Source: Acaryochloris marina S15 (GTDB taxonomy: Bacteria; Cyanobacteriota; Cyanobacteriia; Thermosynechococcales; Thermosynechococcaceae). From it: a stretch of DNA of 32,000 bases. A model generated the notes under the pieces. It ran no database searches and was not told the DNA's origin. It saw only the letters and a program-made list of their open reading frames with translations. Below, piece after piece: positions 1,343 through 19,700 of the stretch (its first letter is position 1; every line of letters begins with the position of its first letter). The position numbers and the translations under genes were made by a program. The stretch covers positions 5,310,001 to 5,342,000 of the forward strand of contig NZ_CP064923.1 in NCBI RefSeq assembly GCF_018336915.1, read 5' to 3'.

Positions 1343-3820
1343 ATGAACTCTAACAATATTGCATTAACTACAGAAATCACAGGAGCACGCCTTCTCAAAG
1401 ATATCACCCCAGACGGTACGTCTAGATTTCCAGGTGATGACTCCGGTTCTAATCCATCGAACTTGACCGAATTCGATGGCAAGCTATTTTTTTCAGCGGA
1501 TGATGGAACCAATGGAAGCGAGCTGTGGATTAGTGACAGGACTACTAATGGCACACAGCTTTTAAAAGATATTAATCCAATCGAAAGGTACTATAACAGT
1601 CTCTATGCATCTAGATATAGATCTTCTAGTTCTAATCCATCGAACTTGACCGAATTCGATGGCAAGCTATTTTTTTCAGCGGATGATGGAACCAATGGAA
1701 GCGAGCTATGGATTAGTGACGGGACTATTAATGGCACACAACTCTTAAAAGATATTAATCCAGGAAGCTCGTATAGGGGAATCCCATCCCCAGGTGGCCG
1801 GCGGCCTAATAGCTCTCGTATAGCTAACTTCATCGAACTCGATGGTAAGTTATTTTTTACCGCGACTGATGGCACCTCCGGAGAAGAACTTTGGGTCAGT
1901 GATGGGACGGTTGACGGTACACAACTGCTAAAAGATATTTATCCTGGAAGCTCATTTGAGTCTCGCATAAACCGGGGTTTGCGGCCCAACAGCTCTGGTA
2001 TATCGAACTTGACCGAATTCGATGGCAAGCTATTTTTTTCAGCGGATGATGGTATCAACGGACGGGAGCTTTGGGTTAGTGACGGCACTGAGAATGGCAC
2101 GCAACTCTTAAAAGATATAAATCCAGGGATTTTATTGAGTAATGGTTCTGCAGCAGGCTCTATTCCATCTAACTTGACCAAATTCGACGACAAACTATTT
2201 TTTACCGCAAATGATGGCATCTCTGGACCAGAACTTTGGGTCAGTGACGGGACCACCGATGGCACACAACTCTTAAAAGATATAAATCCAGGAATCTCAT
2301 ATAGGCAATATGGGCCTAACTATCCCATACCGTTTGGCTCTGATATATCTAGCTTGACTGAGTTCGATGGCAAGCTATTTTTTACTGCAAATGATGGAAT
2401 CAACGGACAGGAGCTTTGGGTTAGTGACGGCACTGAGAATGGAACACAACTCCTCAAAGACATAAATCTAGGAAGCTCATCCAATATATTTAACTTAACC
2501 GAAGTTAATGGCAAGCTATTTTTTACTGCGAATGATGGAATCAACGGACAGGAGCTTTGGGTTAGTGACGGCACTGAGAATGGAACACAACTCCTCAAAG
2601 ACATAAATCCTCCCAATCAACAAGATGGGTATATTTCAAAACTAGTCGTTGCCGGGAATCTATTCTTTTTCACAACAGGCTTTGATGGAGAATTATGGAT
2701 TAGTAATGGCACCCGTGAAGGAACGTTGCTTTACCAAGATATTAATCCAGAAGGTGGTTCATTTCCTGAAGAGTTAACTGTCGTTGGCAATCAACTATTC
2801 TTTACGGCTGATGATGGTGTCACTGGCAAAGAGCCCTGGGTCCTCAACATTCCAGACAATTTAGTTGTGGGCGATGCGAATAACAATATTCTCAGCGGAA
2901 ATGCTGGAGTCGATTTGATCAGTGGTTTAGATGGAAATGACATTATTCGTGGCCGTGGTAATAATGACACTCTGGATGGAGCCAGTGGTGATGATGTCTT
3001 ATTTGGAGATGAAGGTAACGACAGACTTAGCGGCAGAGCTGGTAATGATCAGATTTTTGGTGACCAAGGTAACGACGGACTTAGCGGCGGAGCTGGTAAC
3101 GACATTCTTGAGGGAGGCACTGGTGATGACGAGTTGCAAGGGGATGCTGGTGATGATGTAATCAACGCAGGCAGCGGAAACGATTCGGTTCGTGTGACTG
3201 ATTTCTTGGGCGTAGACAACTTTGATGGAGGGCCTGGAACAGACTTGATTCGATTTACTCCCACAGATAATCGCAACCTACTGGTTTCCCTCGAGGGTGG
3301 ATTTGTTGGTGATGGGAGAGTTGGGGGGCAGTTTTTTGAAAACTTTGAGCAATTTATAGCAGGCGGCGGCAATGACCGAATCTTAGGGGACAGTAGAGAT
3401 ACTCTACTGAATGGAGGAGATGGTAATGATGAGATCAGGGGTGAAGCAGGCCAAGATACACTGATCGGTGAAAGCGGCTCTGATACATTAATCGGCGGTC
3501 AAGGAGCGGATGTTCTCAATGGTGGTTTGGGTAGTGACGTGTTAATTGGTGATCAGGGTGTCAATACGTTTCAATTTGATCAAACATTAAGCACGTTTTT
3601 CTTTTTTGATCGCAGTATGGATGTAGACACGATCTTAAATTTTGAGACTGAAGATGTATTAGATTTTTCTGGCTATCTTGATGCTAGAGGTTCCATCGAG
3701 GCCACCAGAGTCACAGATAATTTTCTTCGCATTAATCTGGACCTAAACAAGACTATTCAAATTTTTGGCACTGCCCAAGGTTTAAATAGCGCTGAAACTC
3801 AAATTGAGCCATTGCTATAA
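1343..3820 (+). CDS. ELWxxDGT-repeat (beta-propeller-like) protein with two RTX hemolysin-type Ca-binding blocks; probable type I secretion substrate
   Basis: 825-aa ORF starting at ATG. It has nine units of the form NLTEFDGKLFF(S/T)A(D/N)DG.NG.ELW(V/I)SDGT..GTQLLKDINPG. GGxGxDxxx nonapeptides occur at ~2871-3190 (GNAGVDLISGLDGNDIIRGRGNNDTLDGASGDDVLFGDEGNDRL...) and ~3360-3560. There is no N-terminal signal peptide. The C-terminal D.ILNF...DVLDFSG segment is typical of RTX secretion-signal regions. Confidence 0.85.
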   Translation: MNSNNIALTTEITGARLLKDITPDGTSRFPGDDSGSNPSNLTEFDGKLFFSADDGTNGSELWISDRTTNGTQLLKDINPIERYYNSLYASRYRSSSSNPSNLTEFDGKLFFSADDGTNGSELWISDGTINGTQLLKDINPGSSYRGIPSPGGRRPNSSRIANFIELDGKLFFTATDGTSGEELWVSDGTVDGTQLLKDIYPGSSFESRINRGLRPNSSGISNLTEFDGKLFFSADDGINGRELWVSDGTENGTQLLKDINPGILLSNGSAAGSIPSNLTKFDDKLFFTANDGISGPELWVSDGTTDGTQLLKDINPGISYRQYGPNYPIPFGSDISSLTEFDGKLFFTANDGINGQELWVSDGTENGTQLLKDINLGSSSNIFNLTEVNGKLFFTANDGINGQELWVSDGTENGTQLLKDINPPNQQDGYISKLVVAGNLFFFTTGFDGELWISNGTREGTLLYQDINPEGGSFPEELTVVGNQLFFTADDGVTGKEPWVLNIPDNLVVGDANNNILSGNAGVDLISGLDGNDIIRGRGNNDTLDGASGDDVLFGDEGNDRLSGRAGNDQIFGDQGNDGLSGGAGNDILEGGTGDDELQGDAGDDVINAGSGNDSVRVTDFLGVDNFDGGPGTDLIRFTPTDNRNLLVSLEGGFVGDGRVGGQFFENFEQFIAGGGNDRILGDSRDTLLNGGDGNDEIRGEAGQDTLIGESGSDTLIGGQGADVLNGGLGSDVLIGDQGVNTFQFDQTLSTFFFFDRSMDVDTILNFETEDVLDFSGYLDARGSIEATRVTDNFLRINLDLNKTIQIFGTAQGLNSAETQIEPLL
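1370..2860 (+). repeat. In-frame tandem coding repeats (9 units, period 138-183 nt) encoding the ELWxxDGT modules
   Basis: The E(L/P)W codon triplets lie at 1520, 1703, 1886, 2066, 2231, 2411, 2552, 2690 and 2831. Segment 1446-1525 is identical to 1628-1707 (~80 nt). Segment 2369-2468 matches 2510-2609 with one mismatch in 100 nt. Confidence 0.85.
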
Positions 3821-6120: not shown

Positions 6121-7110
6121 TCAGTCTGTGGAATTTGTTTGGACAACTTCTCTTACCCGGTAGATAGGGCGACTTTGCGACTCATGGTAGGTTCGCATTA
6201 AGAGCTCTGCTAACAATCCAATTGAAAAGAGCTGAATCCCTGTCAATAAAAGCACAGCGGATAAAATCAGCAAGGGGCGGTCGGCAATCCCTTCACTCAA
6301 GCCGTACTTTAAAAACACTAAATAGCCACCCGTCAAGACCCCTAAGCTAGTAAAGGTAATCCCCAAAAGCCCAAAAACATGCATGGGACGAGTTAAAAAG
6401 GTTTTCATAAAGGATACGGTCAACAAATCCATGACCACCCGGAAAGTCCGATCTAGTCCATACTTGCTTTGACCAAATTGGCGGGCATGATGACGCACAG
6501 GCAGCTCCGCAATTCTGGCACCTTCAATAAAAGCTAACGCCGGTAAAAATCGGTGTAATTCTCCATACAGGTTCATATCAGCAATCAGCTCTGCTCGATA
6601 GGCCTTCAGGGAACAACCATAATCATGCAGCTTAACTCCTGTAATCCACCCAATCATCAAGTTGGCAATCTTAGATGGGAGCAAGCGCGTCAACGCAGCA
6701 TCTTGTCGATCTTTACGCCAACCACTGACCAAATCGTATCCTTCATTCATTTTGGCCAACAGCAATGGAATATCAGCTGGCTCATTTTGCAAGTCACCAT
6801 CAAGGGTGACAAAAATCTCGCCGTGGGCATGGTTAAATCCAGCAGACATGGCAGCCGTTTGTCCATAATTTCGGCGCAACACAACTCCCCGTAGCCGGGG
6901 GTATAGATCCACTTGTTTTCTTAACAACTCAGTCGTACCATCTACCGAGCCATCATCTACACAGATTATTTCATAATTGACCTGAGTATCATTTAGGGTA
7001 TCTGAAATCCTACAAATGAGATGCTCCAGGCTTTCGACCTCATTATAGATGGGGATAATGACCGATATTTCGGGCTGAGTGATCTTGGCTTTTTGGTCTT
7101 GCATTAGCAT
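6121..7110 (-). CDS. gtrB: Polyisoprenyl-phosphate hexosyltransferase, GT2 family (GtrB/ArnC/DPM1-like)
   Basis: 329 aa. It has ISVIIPIYNE, CVDDGSVDGT, a DGDLQ (DxD) motif, and two C-terminal TM helices (HVFGLLGITFTSLGVLTGGYLVF, LLILSAVLLLTGIQLFSIGLLAELL). This is the GtrB architecture. Confidence 0.8.
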   Translation of the reverse strand: MLMQDQKAKITQPEISVIIPIYNEVESLEHLICRISDTLNDTQVNYEIICVDDGSVDGTTELLRKQVDLYPRLRGVVLRRNYGQTAAMSAGFNHAHGEIFVTLDGDLQNEPADIPLLLAKMNEGYDLVSGWRKDRQDAALTRLLPSKIANLMIGWITGVKLHDYGCSLKAYRAELIADMNLYGELHRFLPALAFIEGARIAELPVRHHARQFGQSKYGLDRTFRVVMDLLTVSFMKTFLTRPMHVFGLLGITFTSLGVLTGGYLVFLKYGLSEGIADRPLLILSAVLLLTGIQLFSIGLLAELLMRTYHESQSRPIYRVREVVQTNSTD

Positions 7111-7387: not shown

Positions 7388-7972
7388 ATGAGGATTCTAC
7401 TCTTAGCTCCACATCCATTTTTCCAGACCCGTGGTACACCGATCGCAGTTGATCTTATGCTCAGAGTGCTATCAGAGAGGGGAGATCAGGTTGATATGCT
7501 GACTTTCCCAGAAGGGGATGATGTTGTCTATGACAACGTGCGGATCTATCGGACTCCTAAATTACCATTTATTAAAAATATCAGTCCAGGTTTTTCTGGG
7601 AAAAAACTGGTCTGTGATGGTTTTATGCTGATCCAGGCTATTAACCTCTGTTTGAAGTATAAATATGATATCGTCCATTCGGTTGAAGAATCGGCTTTTA
7701 TCGCGTTGGTTCTTAAAGTCGTGTTTAGAACACCCTATATCTATGATATGGACTCATCCCTGGCACAGCAAATGATTGAGAAATTTTCATTTCTCTCGTC
7801 TTTGCGCTTTCTCTTCAATGCTTTTGAAAGACTGGCCGTCCAACAAGCCAAAGTGGTGATACCTGTTTGCGAAACCTTATCTGAAGATATTCAAGTCTAC
7901 AAACCGAAGCGAGTGGTTGTTTTACCAGACATTTCGCTTTTAGATTACTCTGCCCCGAATAAAAAGGCATAA
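7388..7972 (+). CDS. GT4-family (GT-B fold) glycosyltransferase, N-terminal acceptor domain only (split gene, part 1)
   Basis: MRILLLAPHPFFQTRGTPIAVDLMLRVLSERGDQVDMLTF is a typical GT4 N-terminus. The ORF ends (..VVVLPDISLLDYSAPNKKA*) exactly where the interdomain linker of GT4 enzymes lies. Confidence 0.65.
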   Translation: MRILLLAPHPFFQTRGTPIAVDLMLRVLSERGDQVDMLTFPEGDDVVYDNVRIYRTPKLPFIKNISPGFSGKKLVCDGFMLIQAINLCLKYKYDIVHSVEESAFIALVLKVVFRTPYIYDMDSSLAQQMIEKFSFLSSLRFLFNAFERLAVQQAKVVIPVCETLSEDIQVYKPKRVVVLPDISLLDYSAPNKKA

Positions 7973-7994: not shown

Positions 7995-8642
7995 GTGACG
8001 AAATCTCACCCGTCCAATATGGATAATATCAACGAAAATATCAGAGAGCACTGTCAGCCTGATGAGCTCATTCTGATGTATGTCGGTAATTTAGAGCTTT
8101 ATCAGGGGATTGATTTGCTGCTGGATGGCTTTAAAGTAGCTCAGAATCTTGCTCTTAATGTCCCTTTAAAGCTCGTCATTATCGGCGGTAAAGATGGCGA
8201 CATTGCAAAATATAAGTTAAAAACGAAAAATATCGGCATTGACCACCAAGTTTTATTCTTAGGGCAACGCTCGGTAGAGAATCTAGGGTACTATCTCGCC
8301 CAAGCAGACATCCTGCTCTCTCCTCGCATTAAAGGAAGAAATACGCCAATGAAATTGTATTCTTATCTTGATAGTGGTAAGCCCGTCCTCGCCACTGATT
8401 TGCCAACGCATAATTGGGTTCTGGATAATGAGGTGGCAGTGCTCAGTGCGCCTAACCCAGAAGCGTTTGCCCAGGGAATTATCCACCTAGCCAACCATCC
8501 TCAAATTAGACAAACCCTCGCAGTCGCCGCCAAGAAAATGGTGCAACAAAGGCACTCATTTTCTGCTTATAAGCAGCAGCTCAATAGCTTATATGATTCA
8601 TTACAGTTAGAGTTCAACAATGCTGCCTCAATTGATCAATAA
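7995..8642 (+). CDS. GT4-family glycosyltransferase, C-terminal nucleotide-sugar donor domain only (split gene, part 2)
   Basis: ILMYVGNLELYQGIDLLLDGF...LVIIGG...VLFLGQRS...ADILLSPRIKGRNTPMKLYSYLDSGKPVLATD matches the Glycos_transf_1 core. It lies in a different frame from part 1. The start is uncertain (GTG 7995 or ATG 8019) and there is no clear SD. Confidence 0.65.
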   Translation: MTKSHPSNMDNINENIREHCQPDELILMYVGNLELYQGIDLLLDGFKVAQNLALNVPLKLVIIGGKDGDIAKYKLKTKNIGIDHQVLFLGQRSVENLGYYLAQADILLSPRIKGRNTPMKLYSYLDSGKPVLATDLPTHNWVLDNEVAVLSAPNPEAFAQGIIHLANHPQIRQTLAVAAKKMVQQRHSFSAYKQQLNSLYDSLQLEFNNAASIDQ

Positions 8643-8685: not shown

Positions 8686-10395
8686 ATGCAACGAAATCTA
8701 GAGGAATTATCCAACACTAAATTTGACGTCTTAGTCATAGGCGGCGGCATTTATGGGGCTTGTGTTGCCTATGAAGCAATCCTAAGAGGCTTATCCGTTG
8801 CTTTAGTCGAAAAACAAGATTTTTGTGGGGCGACCTCAGCTAATAGCCTAAAAACCATCCATGGTGGCCTGCGATATCTACAGCATGCTGACTTTAAGCG
8901 GATGCGAGAGTCTATTTATGAGCGGCGCACATTAATGAAAATTGCGCCTCACCTCGTGCATCCCCTGCCTGTGTTGGTGCCGACCTATGGGCATGGATTG
9001 AAAGGCATAGAAGCGATGACGGTGGCACTAAAAATTAATGATTGGGTGAGTTGCGATCGCAACCACGGATTGCCCGATCCTCAACAACATATCCCGGCTG
9101 GTCGAACAATATCTGCGACCGAATGCCTACAGACCATGCCAGGCATTTCCGCAGATGGCCTCACTGGGGGAGCTATTTTCCACGATGCTCAAGTGTTCAA
9201 TTCAGAGCGGTTAGTGCTTGCCTATTTACAGTCTGCGACTCAGCTCGGGTTACAAGCTGCCAACTATCTTAAAGTCACTGATTTTTTACAAGATGGAGAT
9301 ACCATCCTTGGCGCTCAAGTGACGGATGCTCTAACTCAAAACACCTTTGATATTCAAGCCAAAACAATCATTAATACCAGCGGGCCATGGATTAATGAAG
9401 TCCTGGGATTGCTAGATCAACCTCCTTCCTCTCATCAGCCCTTTGCATTAGCCATGAACCTAGTAACCCGATCGCTATTTGATCATGACTATGCCGTCGG
9501 TATCTATAGCAAGACTGACTACACAGATGAAGATGCCATTCTAAAGCGCAAGAACCGATTACTCTTTATCGCACCTTGGCAAGGGTGCTCTTTAGTGGGT
9601 ACAACCTATTCACACTACTCTGATACCCCCGATCATTTATCTATACCCCAGCATGAAATCCAACACTTTTTGGATGACATCAACCATGCCTATCCACTCG
9701 CCAATCTAACGGCTCAGGATGTTTATTGGGTGCATCAAGGTCTACTCCCCAGCAGCCACTCCCCAGCAACCACTCATGTCCAATTAACCAAGCATTACCA
9801 CATCCAAAATTATCAAGAAGAAGGCTTAAATGGCCTCATCTCCGTCACCGGAGTTAAATATACAACTGCTCGCAACGTCGCCATCCATGCAGTCGATACT
9901 GCAGCAGCGATGTTAAAGAGGCCAGTCCTTCCCTCTCAGTCTGCTCAGCAACCCTTACATGGCGGAGCGATCGACAACCTAGATGACTTTTTGGACCAAG
10001 GGCATAACCAACTCAGCCGTATCCCTGATCATCCGTCTGTCCAGAATTTTCTCTACAATTACGGCACAGCCTATTCATCAGTTCTCAAACAGGTACAGCA
10101 CGGGCAACGAGCAACGCCACGACTAGACCTTCTACAAGCACAAGTCACCTATGCAATTGAGGAAGAAATGGCGCAAACCCTCAGTGACGTTATTTTTAGA
10201 CGCACGGGTATCGGCGCTGCCCAAAAGCCTACCACTGCAGAGTTACAAACTTGTGCAGATATTATGTCAAATACACTGTTATGGAATCAGTCTAGAGTAG
10301 AACAAGAGATCTCAGAAGTGACATCTAGGTGGTCTTGGTCTACTCCTAAACCACCCTCTGTGGGGGAAAAAACAGCAACTATTCAGGGAAGATAG
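8686..10395 (+). CDS. FAD-dependent oxidoreductase of the glycerol-3-phosphate dehydrogenase/oxidase (GlpD/GlpO) family
   Basis: 569 aa. FDVLVIGGGIYGACVAYEAILRGLSVALVEKQDFCGATSANSLKTIHGGLRYL is the GlpD-type FAD fold and signature. The C-terminal TLSDVIFRRTGIG resembles the DAO_C domain. Confidence 0.8.
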   Translation: MQRNLEELSNTKFDVLVIGGGIYGACVAYEAILRGLSVALVEKQDFCGATSANSLKTIHGGLRYLQHADFKRMRESIYERRTLMKIAPHLVHPLPVLVPTYGHGLKGIEAMTVALKINDWVSCDRNHGLPDPQQHIPAGRTISATECLQTMPGISADGLTGGAIFHDAQVFNSERLVLAYLQSATQLGLQAANYLKVTDFLQDGDTILGAQVTDALTQNTFDIQAKTIINTSGPWINEVLGLLDQPPSSHQPFALAMNLVTRSLFDHDYAVGIYSKTDYTDEDAILKRKNRLLFIAPWQGCSLVGTTYSHYSDTPDHLSIPQHEIQHFLDDINHAYPLANLTAQDVYWVHQGLLPSSHSPATTHVQLTKHYHIQNYQEEGLNGLISVTGVKYTTARNVAIHAVDTAAAMLKRPVLPSQSAQQPLHGGAIDNLDDFLDQGHNQLSRIPDHPSVQNFLYNYGTAYSSVLKQVQHGQRATPRLDLLQAQVTYAIEEEMAQTLSDVIFRRTGIGAAQKPTTAELQTCADIMSNTLLWNQSRVEQEISEVTSRWSWSTPKPPSVGEKTATIQGR

Positions 10396-10397
10396 CT

Positions 10398-10937
10398 ATG
10401 CCTTCTCCCATTGCGCACTCAGCAACTGCATATTTCCTATACAAAATCACGCCCCAAAACAATCGCTCTATCCACTTAAACCGACATCGTTGGATTGATC
10501 TTGCCTACATCATTGTGATTGGAAACATCGCGGATTTAGACTTTATTCCTCATCTAATCTTAGAAGGCAGTTTTCATCGAGGTCCTTCCCATAGTCTCTG
10601 TATTGCCTTACTGATCAGTATAGGCTGTACCCTTATTTTCAAATGGCTCCATCAATCAACCTTCCAACGATTGTTTTTACTCACGTTTGGAATCTATATC
10701 TCCCATCTTTTTCTGGATTTCTGGACAGCCGGGGGCTCTGGGATGAAGTTACTTTGGCCGTTTACCAATGCTTTTATTAAATCGCCAATTGCTTTTTTTC
10801 CCAGTGTTAGGCATTCCGAAGGATTATTCTATCCAGGTCATATCGTCTTTATGACCTTTGAGACCATTTACAGTGTCGTCCTGTTGGTATTCATTAATCG
10901 ATATCAAAAATATAAACGACAGAATCAAAATACATAG
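10398..10937 (+). CDS. Membrane-bound metal-dependent hydrolase, DUF457/YdjM family
   Basis: 179 aa. The start lies 2 nt after the upstream stop. It has the SPIAHS, ADLDFIPH, HRGPSHSL and HLFLDFWT...LLWPF motifs and several hydrophobic helices. Confidence 0.7.
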   Translation: MPSPIAHSATAYFLYKITPQNNRSIHLNRHRWIDLAYIIVIGNIADLDFIPHLILEGSFHRGPSHSLCIALLISIGCTLIFKWLHQSTFQRLFLLTFGIYISHLFLDFWTAGGSGMKLLWPFTNAFIKSPIAFFPSVRHSEGLFYPGHIVFMTFETIYSVVLLVFINRYQKYKRQNQNT

Positions 10938-10972
10938 ACTCAAAAAAAATATTTAAACCCAGATAATACCTA

Positions 10973-11824
10973 GTGAATATGCACGACTCACAACCATCCC
11001 ATATTCTTGTCGACGCCCATGTGCACCTGCATCACTGTTTTTCCTTACAAACAGTGCTCGATTCAGCATTACAGAATTTCCAAGATAATGGCCAATACAT
11101 AACGACCGGCTTACAGCATCAACTTGGGGTTCTATTCATCAATGAGATAGGGCACCAGAATTCATTTGCACAATTACGGGCAGACATATCTAACAAGCAA
11201 GCGATCACCCTTGATGACTGGACCTTAAACATCACACCTGAACAGGAATCACTAGTCGCTCACCATTCCTCCAATCAGCAAATTCTGCTCATTGTAGGCC
11301 GTCAAATTGTTACCCACGAAAATATCGAAGTCTTATCACTATTCTCAAGTACAACCATCCCAGAACAGCAATCCTTAGAGAAAACACTGCTAAATGTGAG
11401 TATGGCAGGAGGGTTAGCCGTCCTGCCCTGGGGATTTGGTAAATGGTTTGGTAAACGAGGCAAACTCGTGAATCAAGCGATTCAAGCCAGAGATCAAACT
11501 GAGATATTGATAGGCGACAACGGCAATAGACCCAGTTTTTGGATTAATCCAGTTTATCTAAATAAAGCTAAAAAAAAGGGCATCAAGGTATTACCAGGGA
11601 CAGATCCCTTACCTTTAGCAACAGAAGTGCACCGTCCTGGGAGTTTCGGATTCTACACCCAAGGGATCATTCAGGCCAACCATCCTGCAGCTTCTCTCAA
11701 ACAAATACTGATCGATCCAAACACAAGCCTTCAACCCTATGGATCGCTGGAAACGCCATTTCGCTTCATTAATAATCAAATTCAATTTAGACTACAAAAG
11801 AAAAAACGCAACGCCGTTGAATAG
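10973..11824 (+). CDS. Hypothetical protein with an N-terminal HxH metal-hydrolase-like motif (amidohydrolase/PHP-type?)
   Basis: 283-aa ORF in operon context. ILVDAHVHLHH near the N-terminus and LPGTDPLP later are the only recognisable motifs. ATG at 10979 is an alternative start. Confidence 0.5.
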   Translation: MNMHDSQPSHILVDAHVHLHHCFSLQTVLDSALQNFQDNGQYITTGLQHQLGVLFINEIGHQNSFAQLRADISNKQAITLDDWTLNITPEQESLVAHHSSNQQILLIVGRQIVTHENIEVLSLFSSTTIPEQQSLEKTLLNVSMAGGLAVLPWGFGKWFGKRGKLVNQAIQARDQTEILIGDNGNRPSFWINPVYLNKAKKKGIKVLPGTDPLPLATEVHRPGSFGFYTQGIIQANHPAASLKQILIDPNTSLQPYGSLETPFRFINNQIQFRLQKKKRNAVE

Positions 11825-11914
11825 TGTGTTCGAGCCCAAAACTGGTTGGACCTGCAATCCCTGGAATTGCTGAACCAGATTCATTAGCTCAACCTCAAAT
11901 GACAACACGCTAGA

Positions 11915-12694
11915 TTGAAAATCAGCCCGAGAAAACATAACGCTCTTTTACTCATTAATCAGATGCAGCCGGAGAACAACTTTTTAGAAACAGCAGATAT
12001 AGAAACATCTTCCGATGACTATGCTTCTCGTTTTCAAGGGCCTACAGGGGAGTGGCTGCTCCACGTTCAAGAGCAAGCCACCCTGTCTATGCTGACTCAA
12101 TATCCCAACGCCAGCATTTTAGATGTGGGTGGAGGACATGGGCAGCTAACCAAAGCCCTAATCAATAAAGAGTTTTCACTCACCGTTTTGGGTAGTAGCC
12201 TGTCTTGCCAAAACCGTATCAAAACTTATATTGACGCTGGACAGTGTGAGTTCAAGATGGGCGATGTTTTAAGCTTGCCTTACCCAGACAACGCCTTTGA
12301 TATTGTGATTAGTTATCGGTTTCTAGCACATGTGAACCAGTGGCAAGCGTTCTTATCTGAGCTAGGGCGTGTTGCCAAAACAGCCGTGATCGTCGATTAC
12401 CCCACCACTCGCAGCATTAACTACTTATCACCGTTATTATTCAAATTCAAAAAAGGCGTAGAGGGCAATACGCGAAAATTCATCTGTTACCAAGAGAAAG
12501 AGCTATTAGACTTTTGCAGCAGCATTGGGTTAGAGAAGGACAATCGTCATCCACAATTTTTTTGGCCAATGGTTCTCCATCGAATGATGAAGCAACCCAA
12601 AGTCTCAGAACTCCTGGAGAATCCAGTGAAGAAGCTCGGTTTAACATACGTATGGGGCTCTCCAGTAATTACAAAATTCCAGAAAGTTCACTAA
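11915..12694 (+). CDS. Class I SAM-dependent methyltransferase
   Basis: Motif I ILDVGGGHGQL, followed by PYPDNAFDIVISYRFLAHV (Methyltransf_11-like). The track start is TTG. ATG at 11963 (MQPENN) is a plausible alternative. Confidence 0.8.
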   Translation: MKISPRKHNALLLINQMQPENNFLETADIETSSDDYASRFQGPTGEWLLHVQEQATLSMLTQYPNASILDVGGGHGQLTKALINKEFSLTVLGSSLSCQNRIKTYIDAGQCEFKMGDVLSLPYPDNAFDIVISYRFLAHVNQWQAFLSELGRVAKTAVIVDYPTTRSINYLSPLLFKFKKGVEGNTRKFICYQEKELLDFCSSIGLEKDNRHPQFFWPMVLHRMMKQPKVSELLENPVKKLGLTYVWGSPVITKFQKVH

Positions 12695-12751
12695 TCTATT
12701 CATTACTCGAATCCATCATTCATCTAACCATCAACATCCATTAAATACCGT

Positions 12752-13786
12752 ATGTCTTCAATAATGGCTCACGAGAACACAATCAGCCCTGGTCAACGTG
12801 TTTTAGTGACTGGTGCAACTGGCTATACAGGCAGCACCTTAGTCCAAAAACTGCTGACCCAGAATGTAGAGGTTGTGGCGATAGCCCGCCAATCATCTGA
12901 TCTAAGCCGTTGGCAAGATGCACCCATTCAATGGATTAAGGGAGATGTTTTTGATCCACGGCTTATTCAACAGGCGATGGAAGGAGTGAACTATATATTT
13001 CATATGGTCACCCCGTTTCGGGAAGCAAAGTCGTCTGATGATGTTTATTACAATGTTCATGTTAAAAGTACACAGCTACTAGCGAAGGCAGCCTTAAACC
13101 AACCCGACTTCAAGCGCTTTGTCCATATATCGACGATAGGTGTCCATGGACATATCGAAAATCCTCCTGCTGATGAGAACTATAGAACTTCTCCTGGAGA
13201 TTTATACCAATCCACCAAATTAGAAGGCGAAATATGGATCAAGCAATTTGGTGCTGAAACTGGACTACCCGTAACCATCATCAGACCGGCAGGCATTATT
13301 GGGCCTGGTGAAAAACGGCTGTTAAAAATATACAAGATGGTTTGTTCTGGCTTGGTACCAGCCATTGGTAATGGGAGTAATCTTCTGCATTTAATTCACG
13401 TCGATGATTTGACCAACTGTTTTCTGCTGGCCTCTCAACATCCGAATGCAGTGGATGAAGTCTTCATTTGTGGAAATCAAGAATCGATTTCTTTCAAAGA
13501 AATGGTCAATTTGATCTCCGCGTGTTATCAGAAAAAAGCCACTCTTCTACCACTCCCAGCTGCGCCCTTATTCCTATTGGGAGACATGCTTGAGTTTATT
13601 TGTAAGCCTCTAAATATTGAGCCTCCCATTTACCGTAGAAGACTTGCCTTTTACACCAAAGATCGTGCATTCAATGTTAACAAGCTTAAATCGAAACTAG
13701 GTTTTGTGCCGCGACATTCCAATGAGCAGTGTGTTGCTGAACTAGCACAATGGTATTTACAAGAAGGGTGGACAACAGTTAGCTAA
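12752..13786 (+). CDS. NAD-dependent epimerase/dehydratase (extended SDR)
   Basis: VLVTGATGYTGSTLVQKLL (TGxxGxxG) and a catalytic YQSTK (YxxxK). 344 aa. Confidence 0.85.
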   Translation: MSSIMAHENTISPGQRVLVTGATGYTGSTLVQKLLTQNVEVVAIARQSSDLSRWQDAPIQWIKGDVFDPRLIQQAMEGVNYIFHMVTPFREAKSSDDVYYNVHVKSTQLLAKAALNQPDFKRFVHISTIGVHGHIENPPADENYRTSPGDLYQSTKLEGEIWIKQFGAETGLPVTIIRPAGIIGPGEKRLLKIYKMVCSGLVPAIGNGSNLLHLIHVDDLTNCFLLASQHPNAVDEVFICGNQESISFKEMVNLISACYQKKATLLPLPAAPLFLLGDMLEFICKPLNIEPPIYRRRLAFYTKDRAFNVNKLKSKLGFVPRHSNEQCVAELAQWYLQEGWTTVS

Positions 13787-13877: not shown

Positions 13878-15734
13878 GTGATGCTAGATGCTGATATAAA
13901 GTCTCAACTAAGAGAAGCTCAGACTCAAACTGATATTTCTATAATATTGAGGAATATTCACTCCACAGACTTGTCAAGCTCAGATTACTTTTTTATTAGT
14001 AGAGTACTGAACAAAAAACATTCTGAATCTTGTTTAAAAATCGCCTACTTTTCGAATTACACGATTGTTCCTCTGCCTTCTTTTATTGAAGTACAGAGCG
14101 CTTTTCATAATATTGAAGTTAGGAGCTATATAGGAGAGTACAATCAGCACTATCAGGAAATACTAAATCCCAATTCATCAGCTTTAAGCTTCAGCCCTGA
14201 TATCGCTTTCTTACTCTTATCTCTACATGAGCTATGCCCTTCTATCCTGTACAGTTTTACAAGCCTTACTAATCAGCAAAAACTAGATCAAAAAAACATT
14301 ATTCTGGAGCATATCTTTAACTGGGTCAATCTCACTATAGACAAAACGAGTGCTACAGTTTTTGTCAGTGACTTCTTACAACCCACTTTTCCATCTCTTG
14401 GAATCGCGGATAGCCAGCAAAGTTATAGCGAACATGAATTCTATATTGAGCTAAATCTAGCCTTAAAAAAAGAATTTAGAGAAAATCCTAGAGTCTATGT
14501 TATTGATATAGATAAGTTAGCTTCCAGATATGGAAAAGAAGATGCTGTAAACTCCAAAATGTTTTTTATGGCCAAAGTTCTTTGGCATGAAAAATTTTTA
14601 CCCACAATTGCTCAAGAGATCATTCGATATCTCACCAGTTATTTGGGTCGAACTAAAAAATGTTTAGTTTTAGATCTTGACAACACATTATGGGGTGGAG
14701 TGGTTGGTGAGGAGGGAATAGAAGGCGTAAAGATTGGCAATGGCGATCCTATTAGCGAAGCCTATCTTGCTTTTCAATATAAAATTTCTGCTTTGAAAAA
14801 CCGAGGCATAATTCTTGGTATATGCAGTAAAAACAATCAAGCAGATGCTTTAGAAGTCTTTGACAAAAAAGTCGAAATGCCACTAAACATTCAAGACTTT
14901 TCAGCAATCGAAATCAACTGGGAACCCAAATATATCAATATCAAGAACATCGCTCAGAAGTTAAATATTGGAACTGACAGCATCGTCTTTATTGACGATA
15001 ATCCTGTAGAGTGTAGTCTTGTTTCTCAAGCACTTCCTGAAGTAACAACTGTCCAATTACCGAAAGACCCAGCTCTTTACGCTGATGTCCTCGACAAAAT
15101 TCTTGTATTTGAAAAGTTTAATATCCTAAGCGATGATCTCAACAAAGTACAGCAGTATTCGCAAAATGAACAGCGTAAAGAAGAGAAAGAACGAATCGGA
15201 GATCTCAACTCTTATCTACATAGCTTAGAGACGAAAGTTAAAATCTGCTTAGCTGCCGATCAAGATTTACCAAGGGTTCACCAACTCTTTTCTAAAACGA
15301 ATCAATTCAACCTAACCACTATTCGTTACTCGATGTCCAACATTGAGGAATTTCATAAGAATGAGCATGATTCGATTATAATTACCTCTGTTCAAGATAA
15401 ATTTGGCGATTTGGGCACTGTAGGATTATGCTTACTCAAAAACCAAGAGCATCAACTCCTGATTGACAGCTTTATACTGAGTTGTCGGGCGATGGGACGC
15501 GGCATTGAGACAGCATTGCTCAACTACATCAAGCGAGAATATCTTTTAGGTGACCGGTCGCTAAAGCTCATAGGGTCTTACATTCCCACAAAAAAGAACA
15601 TTCCGACTAGAGACTTTTTAGAATCGCAAGGATTTGTTCTAGTATCAAAAGGTACTCAGGGAGAAAAATATTATGAGGTGCACTCCGATGATGCATTAGA
15701 AGTCTCTTGTCCCTGGATTAACATTATTGATTAG
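13878..15734 (+). CDS. FkbH-like / HAD-superfamily subfamily IIIC protein (candidate glyceryl-ACP loader)
   Basis: 618 aa. HAD motif I is LVLDLDNTLWGGVVGEEGIEGVKIG, followed by GIILGICSKNNQADALEVF and FIDDNPVECSLV. The C-terminal GNAT-like part is FGDLGTVGLCLL...IDSFILSCRAMGRGIETALLNYI. The ~250-aa N-terminal extension is unassigned. Confidence 0.8.
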   Translation: MMLDADIKSQLREAQTQTDISIILRNIHSTDLSSSDYFFISRVLNKKHSESCLKIAYFSNYTIVPLPSFIEVQSAFHNIEVRSYIGEYNQHYQEILNPNSSALSFSPDIAFLLLSLHELCPSILYSFTSLTNQQKLDQKNIILEHIFNWVNLTIDKTSATVFVSDFLQPTFPSLGIADSQQSYSEHEFYIELNLALKKEFRENPRVYVIDIDKLASRYGKEDAVNSKMFFMAKVLWHEKFLPTIAQEIIRYLTSYLGRTKKCLVLDLDNTLWGGVVGEEGIEGVKIGNGDPISEAYLAFQYKISALKNRGIILGICSKNNQADALEVFDKKVEMPLNIQDFSAIEINWEPKYINIKNIAQKLNIGTDSIVFIDDNPVECSLVSQALPEVTTVQLPKDPALYADVLDKILVFEKFNILSDDLNKVQQYSQNEQRKEEKERIGDLNSYLHSLETKVKICLAADQDLPRVHQLFSKTNQFNLTTIRYSMSNIEEFHKNEHDSIIITSVQDKFGDLGTVGLCLLKNQEHQLLIDSFILSCRAMGRGIETALLNYIKREYLLGDRSLKLIGSYIPTKKNIPTRDFLESQGFVLVSKGTQGEKYYEVHSDDALEVSCPWINIID

Positions 15735-15746
15735 GATAAATAAGTT

Positions 15747-15986
15747 ATGGCTAAAAGTGGTGTCCAAGAAAGAGTTAAACTGGTTTTTTCTGACGTTCTA
15801 GACATCGATCTGCAAACAATTTCAGATGATCTTGGCCCTGACAACTGTGATAGCTGGGATTCTATGAATAATCTACGGCTCATTACAGCTTTAGAAGAAG
15901 AGTTCAGTATTAATTTCTCAATGGAAGAGATCTCTTCAATGGTTGATATTAGCCGTGCAATTGAGCTAATTGAAAGCAAAAGCTAG
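15747..15986 (+). CDS. Acyl carrier protein
   Basis: 79 aa and acidic. Starts 13 nt after the FkbH-like stop. CDSWDSMNNLRLITALEEEF matches the DS(W/L)xS...L..ALEEEF phosphopantetheine-attachment helix of stand-alone ACPs in polysaccharide loci. Confidence 0.75.
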   Translation: MAKSGVQERVKLVFSDVLDIDLQTISDDLGPDNCDSWDSMNNLRLITALEEEFSINFSMEEISSMVDISRAIELIESKS

Positions 15987-16022: not shown

Positions 16023-16574
16023 GTGATTTTCAAGGACTATGCTGTAATGGATGCTGGTAAAATTGTCCGTAGGTTTTTAGTTCCATCACCTGCAATTACC
16101 CTATATTATCTAATAAAGTTTGGGGCTAAAATCAGTCCTAAAGCTGAGGTTGAACTCAGTTCATTTTTCACAATTGGTCGCCAATCTGTTATCAGTTCAT
16201 TTACTAAGATTAAGGCATCTGAAGGGCCACTAAAAATTGGTTCACATGTTTCTATTTCAACGGGATGCTTTATCAGTTCCCATACGGGTGGACTTGAAAT
16301 TGGTGATTACTGCTTAGTGGGTCCAAATGTAACAATAGTAGGCAATAATTATAACTATAGTAAAATTGATGTTCCCTTAGAACAACAAGGAATTATATCT
16401 AAAGGAATTAGGATTGGTAGCAATGTTTGGCTAGGTGCGGGTGTATGCGTTCTCGATGGAGTCACAGTCGGAGATAATTGTATTATCACCCCTAATTCAG
16501 TTATCTCGTCAAATATTCCTTCCGGTGCGATCGCAAGTGGGCAACCAGCTAAAGTTATTTTTAAACGTAGGTAG
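16023..16574 (+). CDS. Left-handed beta-helix (hexapeptide-repeat) acyl/acetyltransferase
   Basis: Hexapeptide repeats IGDYCLVGPNVTIVG...IGSNVWLGAGVCVLDGVTVGDNCIITPNSVISSNIPSGAIASGQPAKVI. The track start is GTG; ATG at 16047 is an alternative. Confidence 0.8.
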   Translation: MIFKDYAVMDAGKIVRRFLVPSPAITLYYLIKFGAKISPKAEVELSSFFTIGRQSVISSFTKIKASEGPLKIGSHVSISTGCFISSHTGGLEIGDYCLVGPNVTIVGNNYNYSKIDVPLEQQGIISKGIRIGSNVWLGAGVCVLDGVTVGDNCIITPNSVISSNIPSGAIASGQPAKVIFKRR

Positions 16575-16767: not shown

Positions 16768-17766
16768 ATGTACTCATCTAGCATAAGAAATACTAATCCT
16801 ATTTTCATCTTCGGATCGGCACGATCAGGAACTTCTTTATTGAGTCGAATCATTAATTCTCACCCTAGAATTTCAGTTCCATTTGAATCTCATTTATACG
16901 ACACTTTTTATCCCTGGCTGAAGTATTACGGCGATTTAAATCTCTCTAAAAATAGAGAACGCTTAGTCGATGATATTTTAAGTATTGAATGCATGAGAGA
17001 TTGGAGTCCTAGACCTGGTCGAGAATGTGTTTTAGCAGCAGTCTCACAGAATAATTTTGCTGGTATCGTAGATGGATTAATCCGGTCATGGTCTATCAGC
17101 CAGGGGAAAAAAAGATGGGGAGAAAAAACACCAGCGCATGCCTTTTTTTGGCGTGAGATCTTAAATGATTTTCCTAATTGCAAGGTTATTCACATCGTGC
17201 GTGATGGCCGCGACTCATCCTTGTCTTTAAAAAATGCTCGTTTTGGCCCCAAACATTATTATCATTTAGCAAAAGTATGGGTGAAATATTTACAGGTTAT
17301 TGAAAGCTTAAAATCCAAGATAAATAGTAGCTCTTTTTATGAGATACGCTACGAAGATTTGTTGTCTAATACCAATGCTAAATCTAGAGAGATATGTGAT
17401 TTTCTTGAGGAAGATTTTTCTGAAGAAATGCTCAGTTTCTATAACAATAATAATCCATATCCAACTGACAAAGATAATCTCAAAAACCTAGCGAAACCTA
17501 TCATATCTAGCAATTCCAATAAATGGAAGAGTAGTATGTCTCCTAGAGATATAAGAATATTTGAGTCAGTCGCTGGTCCTTATTTAGAGGCATATGGTTA
17601 TGAAACAGTAATGAGTCATCCTACAATCTCTTCTATAGAAGAGTGGTTAATTAAGTATTTTGAGCATCCTCCCAAAAAGATTTTATCTATGATCAAGAAT
17701 AGGAAAGGTCATATTGATGGTTTGCGTAGGTTAGCTATTTATACTCGTCTTGTTATTACTCAATAG
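16768..17766 (+). CDS. PAPS-dependent sulfotransferase
   Basis: 5'-PSB loop FIFGSARSGTSLLSRI and 3'-PB motif IHIVRDGRDSSLS. 332 aa. Confidence 0.8.
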   Translation: MYSSSIRNTNPIFIFGSARSGTSLLSRIINSHPRISVPFESHLYDTFYPWLKYYGDLNLSKNRERLVDDILSIECMRDWSPRPGRECVLAAVSQNNFAGIVDGLIRSWSISQGKKRWGEKTPAHAFFWREILNDFPNCKVIHIVRDGRDSSLSLKNARFGPKHYYHLAKVWVKYLQVIESLKSKINSSSFYEIRYEDLLSNTNAKSREICDFLEEDFSEEMLSFYNNNNPYPTDKDNLKNLAKPIISSNSNKWKSSMSPRDIRIFESVAGPYLEAYGYETVMSHPTISSIEEWLIKYFEHPPKKILSMIKNRKGHIDGLRRLAIYTRLVITQ

Positions 17767-17839: not shown

Positions 17840-19330
17840 ATGAGTAAGTTCATTAAGGGCGCTGGTATTTCATTTATTGGGCAACTAGGAAGTACTGGCT
17901 TAAAATACCTCACCCAAGTTACTCTAGCCTGGATTTTTGGAGCTGAAGTGTTTGGTTTATACACCCTGGGTCTCGTTTTCTATCAATTTTGTGACTTATT
18001 TGCTCGGTTAGGCTTAGAGTTTGGAGCTGTACGTTATGTTGCCATCAACACGACTGCAGAAAGCCGCCCCAACTTAAAAGGGGTTCTACTGACCATACTA
18101 GGTCTCCCATTCATATTCGGATGTGTTCTTGGAGGCATACTATTTTATTGGTCTAGTTTTATTGCCACCGATATTTTTCAAAAACCAGACTTAGCTGTTG
18201 TTCTACAGATATTTTCTCTCGCTATACCTGTCGGCGCTAGCATGACCACAGGCTCGTTTGCAACAACAGGGTTTCAAACTACTTTATATAGAGTCTTAGT
18301 ATTTGACTTAATTGTGCCATTCACCAATCTATTCTTCGCGATTGGTTTAGGGCTAATTGGATTCAAGCTATTGGGAGCATCCTTAGCTTGGTTAATAGCA
18401 TTAATAGTTGGTTTAATACTTATTTTTTATTTTATTTGCAATCTATTTCCAGATATTTTTTCAAGCAAAGTAAAGCCAGTTTTCAATCTAAAAGAAATCC
18501 TTAGTTTCTCTTTACCATTATCTTTTGGAACATTTGTTTGGTTACTTTTAATTTGGACTGATATCTTGATGCTAGGCTACTATAGCAGCGCATCAGAAGT
18601 CGGGATCTATCGAGCTGCTTCACAAACTGCTTTTTTGATGATCCTTTTTGATCGTTCTCTCATCACAATTTTTGTGCCTACAATTGCAAGCTTATTTAAT
18701 CAAGAGAAACTGTCAGAGGCTAATCAACTATATACAACTTCTACTCGTTGGAATTTTATCCTAACTTTACCGCTGTTTATCATACTAACTATTTCTAGCC
18801 AACATATACTCAAAATTTATGGCTCTGATTTTCAATCTGCATGGATGATTCTAATTATCTTGGCAACAGGACAATTAACAAGATCAGGGGGCGGTGGCTT
18901 ATGCATGCATATGTTAGCCATGTCAGGAAACCAATATTTAAAGCTATATGGTGATATTGCTCTAGCCACTACAAATATAACACTTAATTTTTTGCTCATT
19001 CCCTTATGGGGACCACTAGGAGCATCTATTGCTACTGCTTCTAGCATGGCTGGAATTAATTTAGTGCGCGTGATTCAAGTCAAGTACGTTCTAGGAGTTT
19101 ATCCATATTCATTTCGTGATTTCAAACTCATTATTTGTGGTGTAGTGGCTGCTTTGTCTGGCGTCTTAATTCAGTATTTTTTGCATGACATATTTTATTT
19201 ACTGCTAATTGCAATATCTGCACTTGTCATGATTATTACATACAGCCTGATTCTTTTTTTTACAGCACTCAATGAAGATGACAAACTACTTATCAATCAG
19301 TATAAAATAAAGCTTAAAAACTTTCTATAA
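17840..19330 (+). CDS. wzx: Wzx-type oligosaccharide/polysaccharide flippase (MOP superfamily)
   Basis: 496 aa. Hydrophobic throughout, with about 12-14 predicted TM segments and the N- and C-terminal halves typical of Polysacc_synt proteins. The symbol denotes the family only. Confidence 0.75.
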   Translation: MSKFIKGAGISFIGQLGSTGLKYLTQVTLAWIFGAEVFGLYTLGLVFYQFCDLFARLGLEFGAVRYVAINTTAESRPNLKGVLLTILGLPFIFGCVLGGILFYWSSFIATDIFQKPDLAVVLQIFSLAIPVGASMTTGSFATTGFQTTLYRVLVFDLIVPFTNLFFAIGLGLIGFKLLGASLAWLIALIVGLILIFYFICNLFPDIFSSKVKPVFNLKEILSFSLPLSFGTFVWLLLIWTDILMLGYYSSASEVGIYRAASQTAFLMILFDRSLITIFVPTIASLFNQEKLSEANQLYTTSTRWNFILTLPLFIILTISSQHILKIYGSDFQSAWMILIILATGQLTRSGGGGLCMHMLAMSGNQYLKLYGDIALATTNITLNFLLIPLWGPLGASIATASSMAGINLVRVIQVKYVLGVYPYSFRDFKLIICGVVAALSGVLIQYFLHDIFYLLLIAISALVMIITYSLILFFTALNEDDKLLINQYKIKLKNFL

Positions 19331-19700
19331 GATGAAATTTGCGAAAGAAAGAATACTATTTCAACAGTACTAATTCAAGAAGCCAGCAACTAAGATAAGT
19401 TGTGACAAGGAATGACTTCTATCCCTTATCGGGTAGTTTTATTATATGCTTTCGCTCATGAGCAAGTCTCAAAATATCTTTTGAATCATTGATTAAATAC
19501 TTCCTGGTTAGTTCACCGTATAAATTGAGTCAATAGCACAACATAAAGCGAATATTGCAAGAGGTCTCAAGTTTTCGCCATATCATGAAGTCTAGTTCGA
19601 CCTCTCTAAAGTCTTCTGACGTCTAGAGTTCCATCACGATTTTGAGGTAGAAAATTATTTTTTAGTGGCGCATCAAAAGGCAAGGTTCGTTGGAGTATAA

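Follow-up and report, generated by a model that had tools for sequence, protein, structure and literature searches.

A probable glycoconjugate-tailoring module, conserved across bacteria, around a GlpD-like flavoprotein in Acaryochloris marina S15

What does a flavoprotein of the glycerol-3-phosphate (G3P) dehydrogenase family do in a glycan locus? The question is raised by a 32,000-nucleotide stretch of the Acaryochloris marina S15 genome (contig NZ_CP064923.1, positions 5,310,001 to 5,342,000; hereafter the window), in which five plus-strand open reading frames (ORFs) at 8686–13786 encode a GlpD-like flavin adenine dinucleotide (FAD) oxidoreductase, a YdjM/DUF457 membrane protein, a 283-aa protein with an N-terminal HxH motif, a methyltransferase (MT), and a short-chain dehydrogenase/reductase (SDR). 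An earlier note on this DNA had described them as a compact operon with no obvious pathway. Both the reading frames and their arrangement are confirmed: the spacers within the block measure 2, 35, 90, and 57 nt, the TAG stop of the first gene at 10393–10395 is followed by an ATG at 10398, and the block lies between glycosyltransferases (GT4 and GT2) on its upstream side and an FkbH cassette on its downstream side. Comparison across genomes indicates that the five genes belong to a conserved module for glycoconjugate tailoring and that its flavoprotein is no GlpD, a reading to which we assign a probability of roughly 85%.

The module was traced with the 283-aa protein, the product of its most distinctive gene, as the probe. 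In a collection holding one genome per species, at least 588 matches were confirmed, and the window together with the best 80 of them gave 81 loci (numbered with the prefix L), each with up to 10 kb of flank on either side; the full-flank subset comprises 48 loci. Genes were assigned by tblastn with all window proteins, all-against-all clustering of ORFs, and hidden Markov models (HMMs) built from the clusters. Four loci outside this set were added, three Chloroflexi contigs reached through flavoprotein homologues and one Planctomycetota contig reached through the 283-aa protein. Across the 81 loci, the flavoprotein is found in 77, GT4 in 76, the SDR in 73, and a left-handed β-helix (LbH) acyltransferase in 63, followed by YdjM (53), the methyltransferase (44), an ArnC-like GT2 (22, or 29 by HMM), a GT-C glycosyltransferase (18–21), an AsnB-like amidotransferase (17), and FkbH (9). 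Recurring mostly in one order, the arrangement is not a product of chance. The recurrent core is GT4, the GlpD-derived flavoprotein, the extended SDR, and the LbH acyltransferase; YdjM, the 283-aa protein (termed PHP below for its predicted fold), one or more methyltransferases, one or more AsnB-like amidotransferases, and the cassette of FkbH and an acyl carrier protein (ACP) are optional, lineage-specific accessories. The five-gene operon of the earlier note is a co-conserved, operon-like unit, but it was drawn too narrowly, since GT4 and the LbH acyltransferase belong to it as well. A co-occurrence profile, suggested at the time as a check, shows the block traveling with GT4, SDR, and LbH; GT2 accompanies it in 20 of the 48 full-flank loci.

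Several gene orders recur. GT4-FAD-YdjM-PHP-MT-SDR-LbH is seen in 23 cyanobacterial loci (14, plus 9 in which PHP and MT form one ORF), PHP-GT4-AsnB-FAD-SDR-LbH in 9 cyanobacterial loci, GT4-FAD-YdjM-PHP-SDR-LbH in 5 loci, and the order of the window, GT4-FAD-YdjM-PHP-MT-SDR-FkbH-LbH, in 3. Eight of the 80 genome loci are noncyanobacterial (Gammaproteobacteria, Nitrospirota, Syntrophaceae, and a bin labeled Deferribacteres) and keep PHP-GT4-FAD-SDR-(FkbH)-LbH. The three Chloroflexi contigs display either a minus-strand GT2 followed by MT-GT4-FAD-MT′-SDR, or GT4-FAD-MT-SDR-LbH-FkbH; two of them (L081 and L082) carry LPG_synthase_TM and PMT_2 (GT-C) genes after the module, in one case also a pyruvyl transferase and an FrhB-like protein. 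The Planctomycetota version (L083) reads GT2-GT2-GT4-PHP-FAD-AsnB-MT-SDR-MT-AsnB-LbH-YdjM and stands in an exosortase locus, directly after EpsH and EpsI. With 612 bits, below the cut-off of 817, the module's AsnB is similar to the XrtA/PEP-CTERM amidotransferase TIGR03108. That MT and AsnB might be alternatives acting on one carboxylate was considered, as they are nearly exclusive in the 81 loci (both in 1, MT only in 43, AsnB only in 16), and was dropped on finding both together, twice each, in L083; the exclusivity is best treated as a lineage effect. This operon type is shared by hundreds of genomes from cyanobacteria and other bacteria, and a full-text literature search, with most subscription journals outside its coverage, found no publication on it.

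The flavoprotein itself (569 aa; 8686–10395, plus strand) is a GlpD/GlpO-family FAD oxidoreductase built from the domains DAO (PF01266, 137.7 bits) and DAO_C (PF16901, 69.8 bits). It aligns over about 500 residues with the GlpD/GlpO structures 2qcu, 3da1, and 2rgh (E about 1e-52 to 1e-45) and scores below every GlpD/GlpO equivalog cut-off (NF008899, 248.5 against 360; NF033461, 231.8 against 840; NF009906, 215.9 against 352). Almost all public names in the family are "glycerol-3-phosphate dehydrogenase/oxidase", a few being only "FAD-dependent oxidoreductase". Residues were compared by aligning 80 module-linked flavoproteins with the three structures, in all of which H233, D272, R317, R332, and K354 (Escherichia coli GlpD numbering) are identical. 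H233 of the KG[SVI]H motif (H233/H259), which we take to be the proposed base of GlpD/GlpO, is Asn in 75 of the 80 (N258 in the window). R317 of the G[VL]RP motif (R317/R346), presumably the arginine that binds the substrate anion, as also in glycine and D-amino-acid oxidases, is Leu in 73 and Val, Ile, or Gln in the rest (L354). D272 is replaced by Tyr or His (Y308), and R332 by Lys in 64 of the 80 (K369); H50, R54, K354, and the FAD-binding motif are retained. In the Chloroflexi and Planctomycetota orthologues, position 233 is likewise Asn, and position 317 is Leu or Val. Five loci (L035, L042, L060, L075, and L076) hold a second flavoprotein copy, 39–42% identical, at the end of the module downstream of LbH; in the second in-cluster paralogue, Thr or Ser stands at the H233 position and Val or Ile at that of R317.

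Genomic context agrees with these replacements. Flavoprotein orthologues are embedded in the GT4/SDR/LbH module in 77 of the 81 loci, and no glycerol kinase or facilitator was recognized among the annotated gene families within 10 kb, rarer families being outside the annotation. The suspicion that a GlpD-family enzyme was out of place here is borne out: its orthologues sit in glycan loci and have lost active-site residues of GlpD/GlpO. Judged by its sequence, the flavoprotein is not a G3P dehydrogenase or oxidase, having lost residues common to the solved GlpD/GlpO structures, and the G3P name of the family reads as a misannotation because of the replacements and the glycan-locus context combined.

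How far does the operon extend? The five genes form the central part of a longer one. The co-oriented run stretches from GT4 at 7388 to the end of a Wzx-type flippase gene at 19330 with gaps of 2–193 nt, no plus-strand gap between these positions contains a convincing terminator-like site (the reported plus-strand sites lie inside coding sequences), and a terminator-like hairpin with a T-run occurs at 19419–19436, 3′ of the flippase gene, which is the probable last gene of the operon. At the other end, GT4 is encoded by two plus-strand ORFs, one for the N-terminal (acceptor) domain (7388–7972, Pfam Glyco_transf_4) and one for the C-terminal (donor) domain (7995–8642, Pfam Glycos_transf_1), in different frames and separated by 22 nt. 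The same split at the interdomain linker occurs in 47 of the 76 loci with GT4, with junctions ranging from a 4-nt overlap to a 265-nt gap; in the other 29, including all noncyanobacterial members of the 80-locus set, the halves are fused. The split gene gives the impression of encoding a conserved GT-B enzyme made of two polypeptides, not of being a pseudogene. GT4 adjoins the flavoprotein or PHP gene in 76 of the 81 loci.

The reductase of the core is an extended SDR (344 aa; 12752–13786, plus strand; PF01370, 117 bits) in which all expected motifs are present: GATGYTG for GxxGxxG, the catalytic Ser (S127), and Y152-QST-K156 for YxxxK. Its best family matches (HpnA, OleD, SdmB, and 3-beta-HSD) all fall below their cut-offs and represent families that act on lipids; the HpnA model (TIGR03466, cut-off 367.65) gives the window SDR 134.7 bits and paralogous SDRs 172–184 bits. 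An Arg after strand β2 generally goes with the use of NADP(H) in SDRs. This residue (Arg46) is found in 39 of 40 SDRs of the window type (type A), and the other type (B) has 26 Arg and 3 Lys among 37, so that by its sequence the window SDR is probably an NADPH-dependent ketoreductase. Type A occurs in 39 of 42 loci with MT, and 25 of 26 loci lacking MT contain only type B. The idea drawn from this coupling, that MT acts before the SDR in the pathway, was weakened by Chloroflexi in which MT lies upstream of GT4 together with a B-type SDR. Most loci contain both FAD and SDR genes, and in many of them the two adjoin or overlap; SDR and LbH are nearly always neighbors, and L056 and L063 have two copies of this pair.

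In the window, the place of the ordinary LbH is taken by an FkbH-ACP-LbH variant. The FkbH-type loader (13878–15734, plus strand; TIGR01686, 288.4 bits against 146.65) is directly followed by an ORF for a putative 79-aa ACP (15747–15986, plus strand), and then by a hexapeptide O-acyltransferase of FkbH-associated type (183 aa; 16023–16574, plus strand; Hexapep) that resembles maltose/galactoside O-acetyltransferases in the PDB. Orthologues of this LbH (55–62% identity) occur only in FkbH loci; elsewhere an LbH of about 260 aa, similar to WcaF/WbbJ, follows the SDR. The ACP arrangement and a (D/E)xWDS(L/M)N motif recur in all eight other checkable FkbH loci, with no PP-binding Pfam match at E ≤ 1e-3. 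The simplest reading is that the cassette swaps the acyl donor of one acylation step from acetyl-CoA to glyceryl-ACP. In four other loci (L011, 14104–15729; L017; L073; L084, 7665–9386), FkbH and ACP are followed by a fusion of a MaoC dehydratase with a FabG-like ketoreductase, of which the window has none; the fusion could convert glyceryl-ACP to lactyl-ACP, giving lactate rather than glycerate esters in those loci.

The remaining genes of the block encode accessory proteins. The 283-aa protein (10973–11824, plus strand; the true start is probably ATG 10979, judging from homologue lengths and alignments) matches no Pfam or NCBIfam model and carries D14-x-H16-x-H18 at its N-terminus. The protein collection holds 590 relatives, all "hypothetical" where named, and the family is tight (2579 clusters at 50% identity, 1968 of them at E ≤ 1e-30). 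Pfam, NCBIfam, and single-sequence or profile PDB searches gave no sequence link to PHP models or structures, and a PDB match to light-harvesting proteins was a chance "PGxDPL" match. The AlphaFold2 (AF2) model (pLDDT 89.7), compared by Foldseek, found PsfC, the PHP phosphoesterase TM0559, EndoQ, and RNase AM (entries 7rty, 2anu, 5zb8, and 7ug9) at probability 1.0, TM 0.34–0.61, 11–16% identity, and E 4e-6 to 9e-4. Invariant in the family are D14, H16, H18, E90, E116, E119, D182, D211, E218, K157, R162, and R186; the only two invariant His are those of DxHxH, and the invariant acidic residues could substitute as metal ligands. On the modeled fold, the distorted TIM barrel of PHP proteins, the protein appears to be a divergent PHP-fold metal-dependent hydrolase and is probably a phosphoesterase. 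A CpsB-like tyrosine phosphatase was considered and rejected: the loci showed no BY-kinase, and the Foldseek matches did not include CpsB/YwqE. PHP and MT form a single ORF of 529–569 aa in 14 loci (L015, L020, L021, L025–L027, L033, L045, L052, L053, L063, L070, L077, and L078), and a 531-aa member of the PHP family also emerged from a search of representatives.

YdjM/DUF457 is an integral membrane protein (179 aa; 10398–10937, plus strand; PF04307, 62.1 bits against a gathering score of 29) with the invariant residues M1-P-S-P-I-x-H7, D46, D48, H60, H65, H103, and D107. Its AF2 model (pLDDT 88.7) has no structural neighbor in the PDB (best E 3.3), so that the structural comparison once proposed for both proteins yielded a PHP fold for the 283-aa protein but nothing for DUF457. 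To our knowledge, hydrolase activity has never been demonstrated for YdjM/DUF457; an apparent literature match to DUF457 proved to be a prefix match to DUF4579. The methyltransferase (259 aa; 11915–12694, plus strand; Methyltransf_11/25) belongs to class I of the S-adenosylmethionine (SAM)-dependent enzymes and probably starts at ATG 11963, again from homologue lengths and alignments; its best PDB match, LahSB, is weak and covers only the SAM-binding core, and a 52% orthologue lies upstream of GT4 in Chloroflexi. The earlier note had found no role for DUF457 and the HxH protein in either of its schemes. Both are accessory; PHP and YdjM genes are absent from all three flavoprotein-seeded Chloroflexi loci.

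Which substrate would such a module act on? The surrounding genes point toward carrier lipids and export. The GT2 gene (6121–7110, minus strand; Pfam Glycos_transf_2) is divergent from the operon, 277 nt upstream, and encodes an enzyme of ArnC/GtrB/AglJ type, similar to polyprenyl-phosphate sugar synthases and built like them from a GT2 domain plus two C-terminal hydrophobic helices (residues 248–305), with subthreshold scores (ArnC, 230.4 bits against 529; AglJ, 92 bits). Orthologues with 63–76% identity lie near the module in other cyanobacteria, and one with 52% in the Chloroflexi loci L081 and L082; the divergent adjacency of GT2 and module holds for Acaryochloris, several other cyanobacteria, and these two Chloroflexi. 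At least one of GT2, GT-C (PMT_2/ArnT-like), and LPG_synthase_TM is found within 10 kb in 30 of the 48 full-flank loci, and Wzx in 23 of them. The window holds only two GTs and has no gene for an initiating phosphoglycosyltransferase, a Wzy polymerase, or a GT-C enzyme.

Because of the composition of the core, the lost G3P site, the NADP-type SDR, the adjacency of SDR and LbH, the switch of acyl donor, and the surrounding genes for carrier lipids and export, we propose a pathway on the cytoplasmic face that acts on a non-nucleotide, membrane-bound glycosyl intermediate. The scheme is tentative, and for its steps taken as a whole we would offer somewhat less than even odds. GT4 would add a sugar to a lipid-linked intermediate, possibly one begun on polyprenyl phosphate by the divergent ArnC/GtrB/AglJ-like GT2. 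The flavoprotein would then oxidize a secondary hydroxyl of this non-nucleotide substrate to a ketone, which the NADPH-type SDR would reduce, the net result being epimerization to a rare sugar. The LbH transferase would esterify the product, in the window with glycerate supplied by FkbH/ACP instead of with acetate from acetyl-CoA; the methyltransferase may methylate and the sulfotransferase sulfate it; the PHP-fold enzyme and YdjM may hydrolyze a phosphate ester of the intermediate or carrier; and the Wzx-type flippase would export the product. An oxidizing and reducing pair of FAD enzyme and SDR acting on a polyprenyl-phosphate sugar made by the GtrB-like GT2 had been suggested before. The pair is compatible with the co-occurrence of the two genes, the NADP-type Arg, and the divergent GT2, but the tightest partner is GT4, which that suggestion had omitted.

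A number of observations weigh against this reading. Only 20 of the 48 full-flank loci have GT2 within 10 kb, which makes the carrier-lipid link moderate. One locus (L054) has PHP-GT4-SDR-LbH and no flavoprotein, and FAD and SDR could act at different positions, not as a pair. The AsnB-like amidotransferases in many modules imply a carboxylate that the scheme does not create. YdjM is without structural or functional precedent, and with only two of the usual PHP histidines the phosphatase role of the 283-aa protein is a guess. As the loci are mostly PHP-seeded, the counts, drawn from related genomes, are biased toward PHP-containing versions and are not phylogenetically independent. Finally, the roles given above for H233 and R317 are those reportedly assigned in the GlpD/GlpO structure papers of Yeh et al. 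(2008) and Colussi et al. (2008).

A bolder form of the proposal holds that the GlpD-derived flavoenzyme and the NADPH-dependent extended SDR constitute a second, independently evolved epimerase of the DprE1/DprE2 type, acting on carrier-lipid sugars and spread over Cyanobacteria, Chloroflexi, Planctomycetota, Nitrospirota, and Proteobacteria. The rare sugar so formed would then be esterified (with acetate, glycerate, or lactate), methylated, or amidated, with the participation of a new family of PHP-fold hydrolases and DUF457. We would bet against this extended version, if not heavily.

Among the alternatives, the one that survives best places a phosphorylated C3 or polyol acceptor at the start of the pathway, and we consider it unlikely. 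GT4 would glycosylate a small phosphorylated compound such as G3P or 3-phosphoglycerate in the manner of MshA, sucrose-phosphate synthase, or GpgS, the PHP enzyme would remove the phosphate, the flavoenzyme, devoid of phosphate-binding arginines, would oxidize the glycerol moiety, and SDR, MT or AsnB, and LbH would complete the product. The descent of the flavoprotein from G3P enzymes, of which it keeps R54 and K354, would fit this route, as would the position of PHP directly 5′ of GT4, both in the second gene order and in the Gammaproteobacteria and Nitrospirota loci. So would the PHP-MT fusions and the orthologous MT that abuts GT4 in Chloroflexi, the recurrence of glycerate chemistry (FkbH) in the module, and the presence of AsnB and methyltransferase, both of which would suit a glycerate carboxylate. 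MshA is among the best PDB and NCBIfam neighbors of GT4, weakly so: the similarity is marginal, at E about 1e-6. Moreover, the three Chloroflexi modules without a PHP-fold or YdjM gene imply that dephosphorylation is not universal, and the many carrier-lipid and export genes in the loci are unexpected for a soluble solute.

Rather improbable, in our estimate, is a route to uronic acids, in which FAD enzyme and SDR would jointly either turn the primary alcohol group of a bound sugar into a carboxylate by oxidation or epimerize a uronic acid, the product being capped as a methyl ester (MT) or amide (AsnB) and O-acylated to give a pectin-like residue. Production of uronic acids is not known for GlpD-family flavoenzymes or for extended SDRs. 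The AsnB-like amidotransferases, which require a carboxylate and lie within the module in 17 of 81 loci as well as in L082 and L083, would be accounted for, although the joint presence of MT and AsnB in L083 means that the two are not simple alternatives. The weak match of MT to LahSB, a methyltransferase that reportedly acts on a carboxylate, points the same way but extends over the SAM-binding core only. A lipoprotein encoded beyond the operon (19701–21116, plus strand; FG-GAP_3, RGL11_C, lipobox LFTGC) resembles FG-GAP and rhamnogalacturonan lyase family 11 proteins and hints at an exported polymer containing uronic acid; orthologues with 52–60% identity occur near the module in about 10 cyanobacterial loci, a loose association. 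On a glycan linked to a lipid, AglP produces the methyl ester of a hexuronic acid (PMC3871713).

The other scheme of the earlier note, in which FAD enzyme, SDR, and MT modify the glyceryl unit that FkbH has loaded onto the ACP, as a functional parallel to FkbI/FkbK/FkbG, took its appeal from the FkbH, ACP, and LbH genes immediately downstream in the window and has, in our view, very little chance of being right. It is disfavored because FAD (77 loci) and SDR (73) are far commoner, by eight to nine times, than FkbH, which is present in 9 of 81 loci (6 of the 48 with full flanks) and travels with its own ACP and special LbH. In several FkbH loci, the MaoC/ketoreductase fusion would perform any tailoring at the ACP level, and the enzyme families are unlike FkbI, FkbK, and FkbG. 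The last alternative, an ordinary respiratory GlpD placed in a glycan locus by chance, can appeal to the public names and the DAO plus DAO_C architecture and is next to negligible given the subthreshold equivalog scores, the family-wide replacement of H233, R317, and D272, and the location of the gene inside the module in 77 of the 81 loci, where the families annotated within 10 kb included no recognizable glycerol kinase or facilitator.

The downstream part of the locus appears exchangeable. From the NDH-2 gene to the flippase, the window is syntenic with A. marina MBIC11017 (L001) at 83–98% protein identity, and its YdjM has a 100% identical counterpart in A. marina. Toward Acaryochloris sp. 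IP29b (L016), identity drops stepwise (GT2 94%, the GT4 halves 87% and 79%, FAD 76%, YdjM 59%, PHP 51%), and beyond PHP the genes are different ones: a type B SDR, LbH, GT4, a deacetylase, and Wzx. Within the operon, the GC content is 0.40–0.47 from GT4 to SDR and 0.35–0.38 across FkbH, ACP, LbH, sulfotransferase, and Wzx. The break in composition and the replacement in IP29b suggest a recombination boundary and a swappable downstream cassette. That cassette ends with the sulfotransferase (16768–17766, plus strand; Sulfotransfer_3), which has orthologues in 11 of the 48 full-flank loci, and the MOP/Wzx-type flippase (17840–19330, plus strand; Polysacc_synt). No Rfam or tRNA match was found anywhere in the window. 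Unrelated neighbors are an 825-aa RTX calcium-binding repeat protein (1343–3820), an FGE-sulfatase-domain protein with a weak N-terminal HTH_Tnp_1 match (25750–26910), and, on the minus strand, a purF-like amidophosphoribosyltransferase (27119–28630) and a purL-like FGAM synthase (28715–31096).

The consequences reach beyond this genome. The G3P label misstates glycerol metabolism in many cyanobacterial, Chloroflexi, and other genomes, and the module is widespread, with about 2,600 clusters of the PHP-fold family at 50% identity and at least 588 genome matches. It joins a repurposed flavoenzyme, a hydrolase family lacking any Pfam model, DUF457, and a conserved split GT4. If the epimerization of carrier-bound sugars were correct, it would represent a second evolutionary solution to the DprE1/DprE2 problem; it would also hint at overlooked sugars and at esters of glycerate or lactate in cyanobacterial sulfated exopolymers, a matter of interest for ecology and biotechnology.

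Comparison with characterized systems supplies precedents for single parts of the proposal. In the Agl pathway of Haloferax volcanii, a GT2 starts the glycan on polyprenyl monophosphate and further GTs extend it on the same carrier; a SAM-dependent methyltransferase and an isomerase act during assembly, and for a second sugar, also lipid-linked, a Wzx-like protein and a GT-C enzyme are responsible (PMC3871713). Agl N-glycosylation (AglJ, AglG/I/E, AglP, AglQ, AglR, and AglS) is thus a precedent for build-up, methylation, and isomerization on a carrier, and the window GT2 is a subthreshold match to AglJ. The difference is that Agl is a pathway of archaeal protein N-glycosylation and has no flavoprotein, LbH acyltransferase, or FkbH. 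The three-component periplasmic glycosylation systems ArnC/ArnT and GtrB/GtrC share with the module a GT2 with C-terminal helices, and GT-C (PMT_2) and flippase-like genes are present in many of the related loci; these systems lack a GT4/FAD/SDR/LbH module, and the window GT2 lies below the ArnC cut-off. FkbH/ACP systems of polyketide and tetronate pathways likewise have an FkbH domain, with a small dedicated ACP that in the window is putative and lies directly downstream, whereas the cassette of the window would supply an LbH O-acyltransferase and lies in a glycan locus, not with a polyketide synthase, and has no partners of FkbI/FkbK/FkbG type. The predicted fold and the N-terminal DxHxH strand are common to the 283-aa protein, the PHP phosphoesterases (TM0559, RNase AM, and EndoQ), and PsfC. 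With GlpD/GlpO, the module flavoprotein shares its fold and the DAO plus DAO_C domain pair but differs in active-site residues and in its context of glycan assembly.

The closest parallel in logic is the mycobacterial decaprenylphosphoryl-ribose 2′-epimerase DprE1/DprE2, in which a membrane-associated flavoenzyme oxidizes a secondary hydroxyl of a polyprenyl-phosphate sugar, after which a second enzyme, an NAD(P)H-dependent SDR, converts the ketone to the epimer by reduction. Where the substrate is not a nucleotide sugar, as in DprE1/DprE2, the two half-reactions are divided between an oxidase and a reductase and not carried out by a single NAD-retaining epimerase. There, a phosphatase step precedes epimerization, the sugar is delivered by a UbiA-type phosphoribosyltransferase, and the product is used by GT-C enzymes. 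The proposed likeness would be one of analogy, not homology: DprE1 is a VAO-type (FAD_binding_4) flavoprotein and DprE2 a classical SDR, whereas the module pairs a GlpD/DAO-type flavoprotein with an extended SDR (PF01370), and its carrier-linked sugar would come from GT2 and GT4 enzymes.

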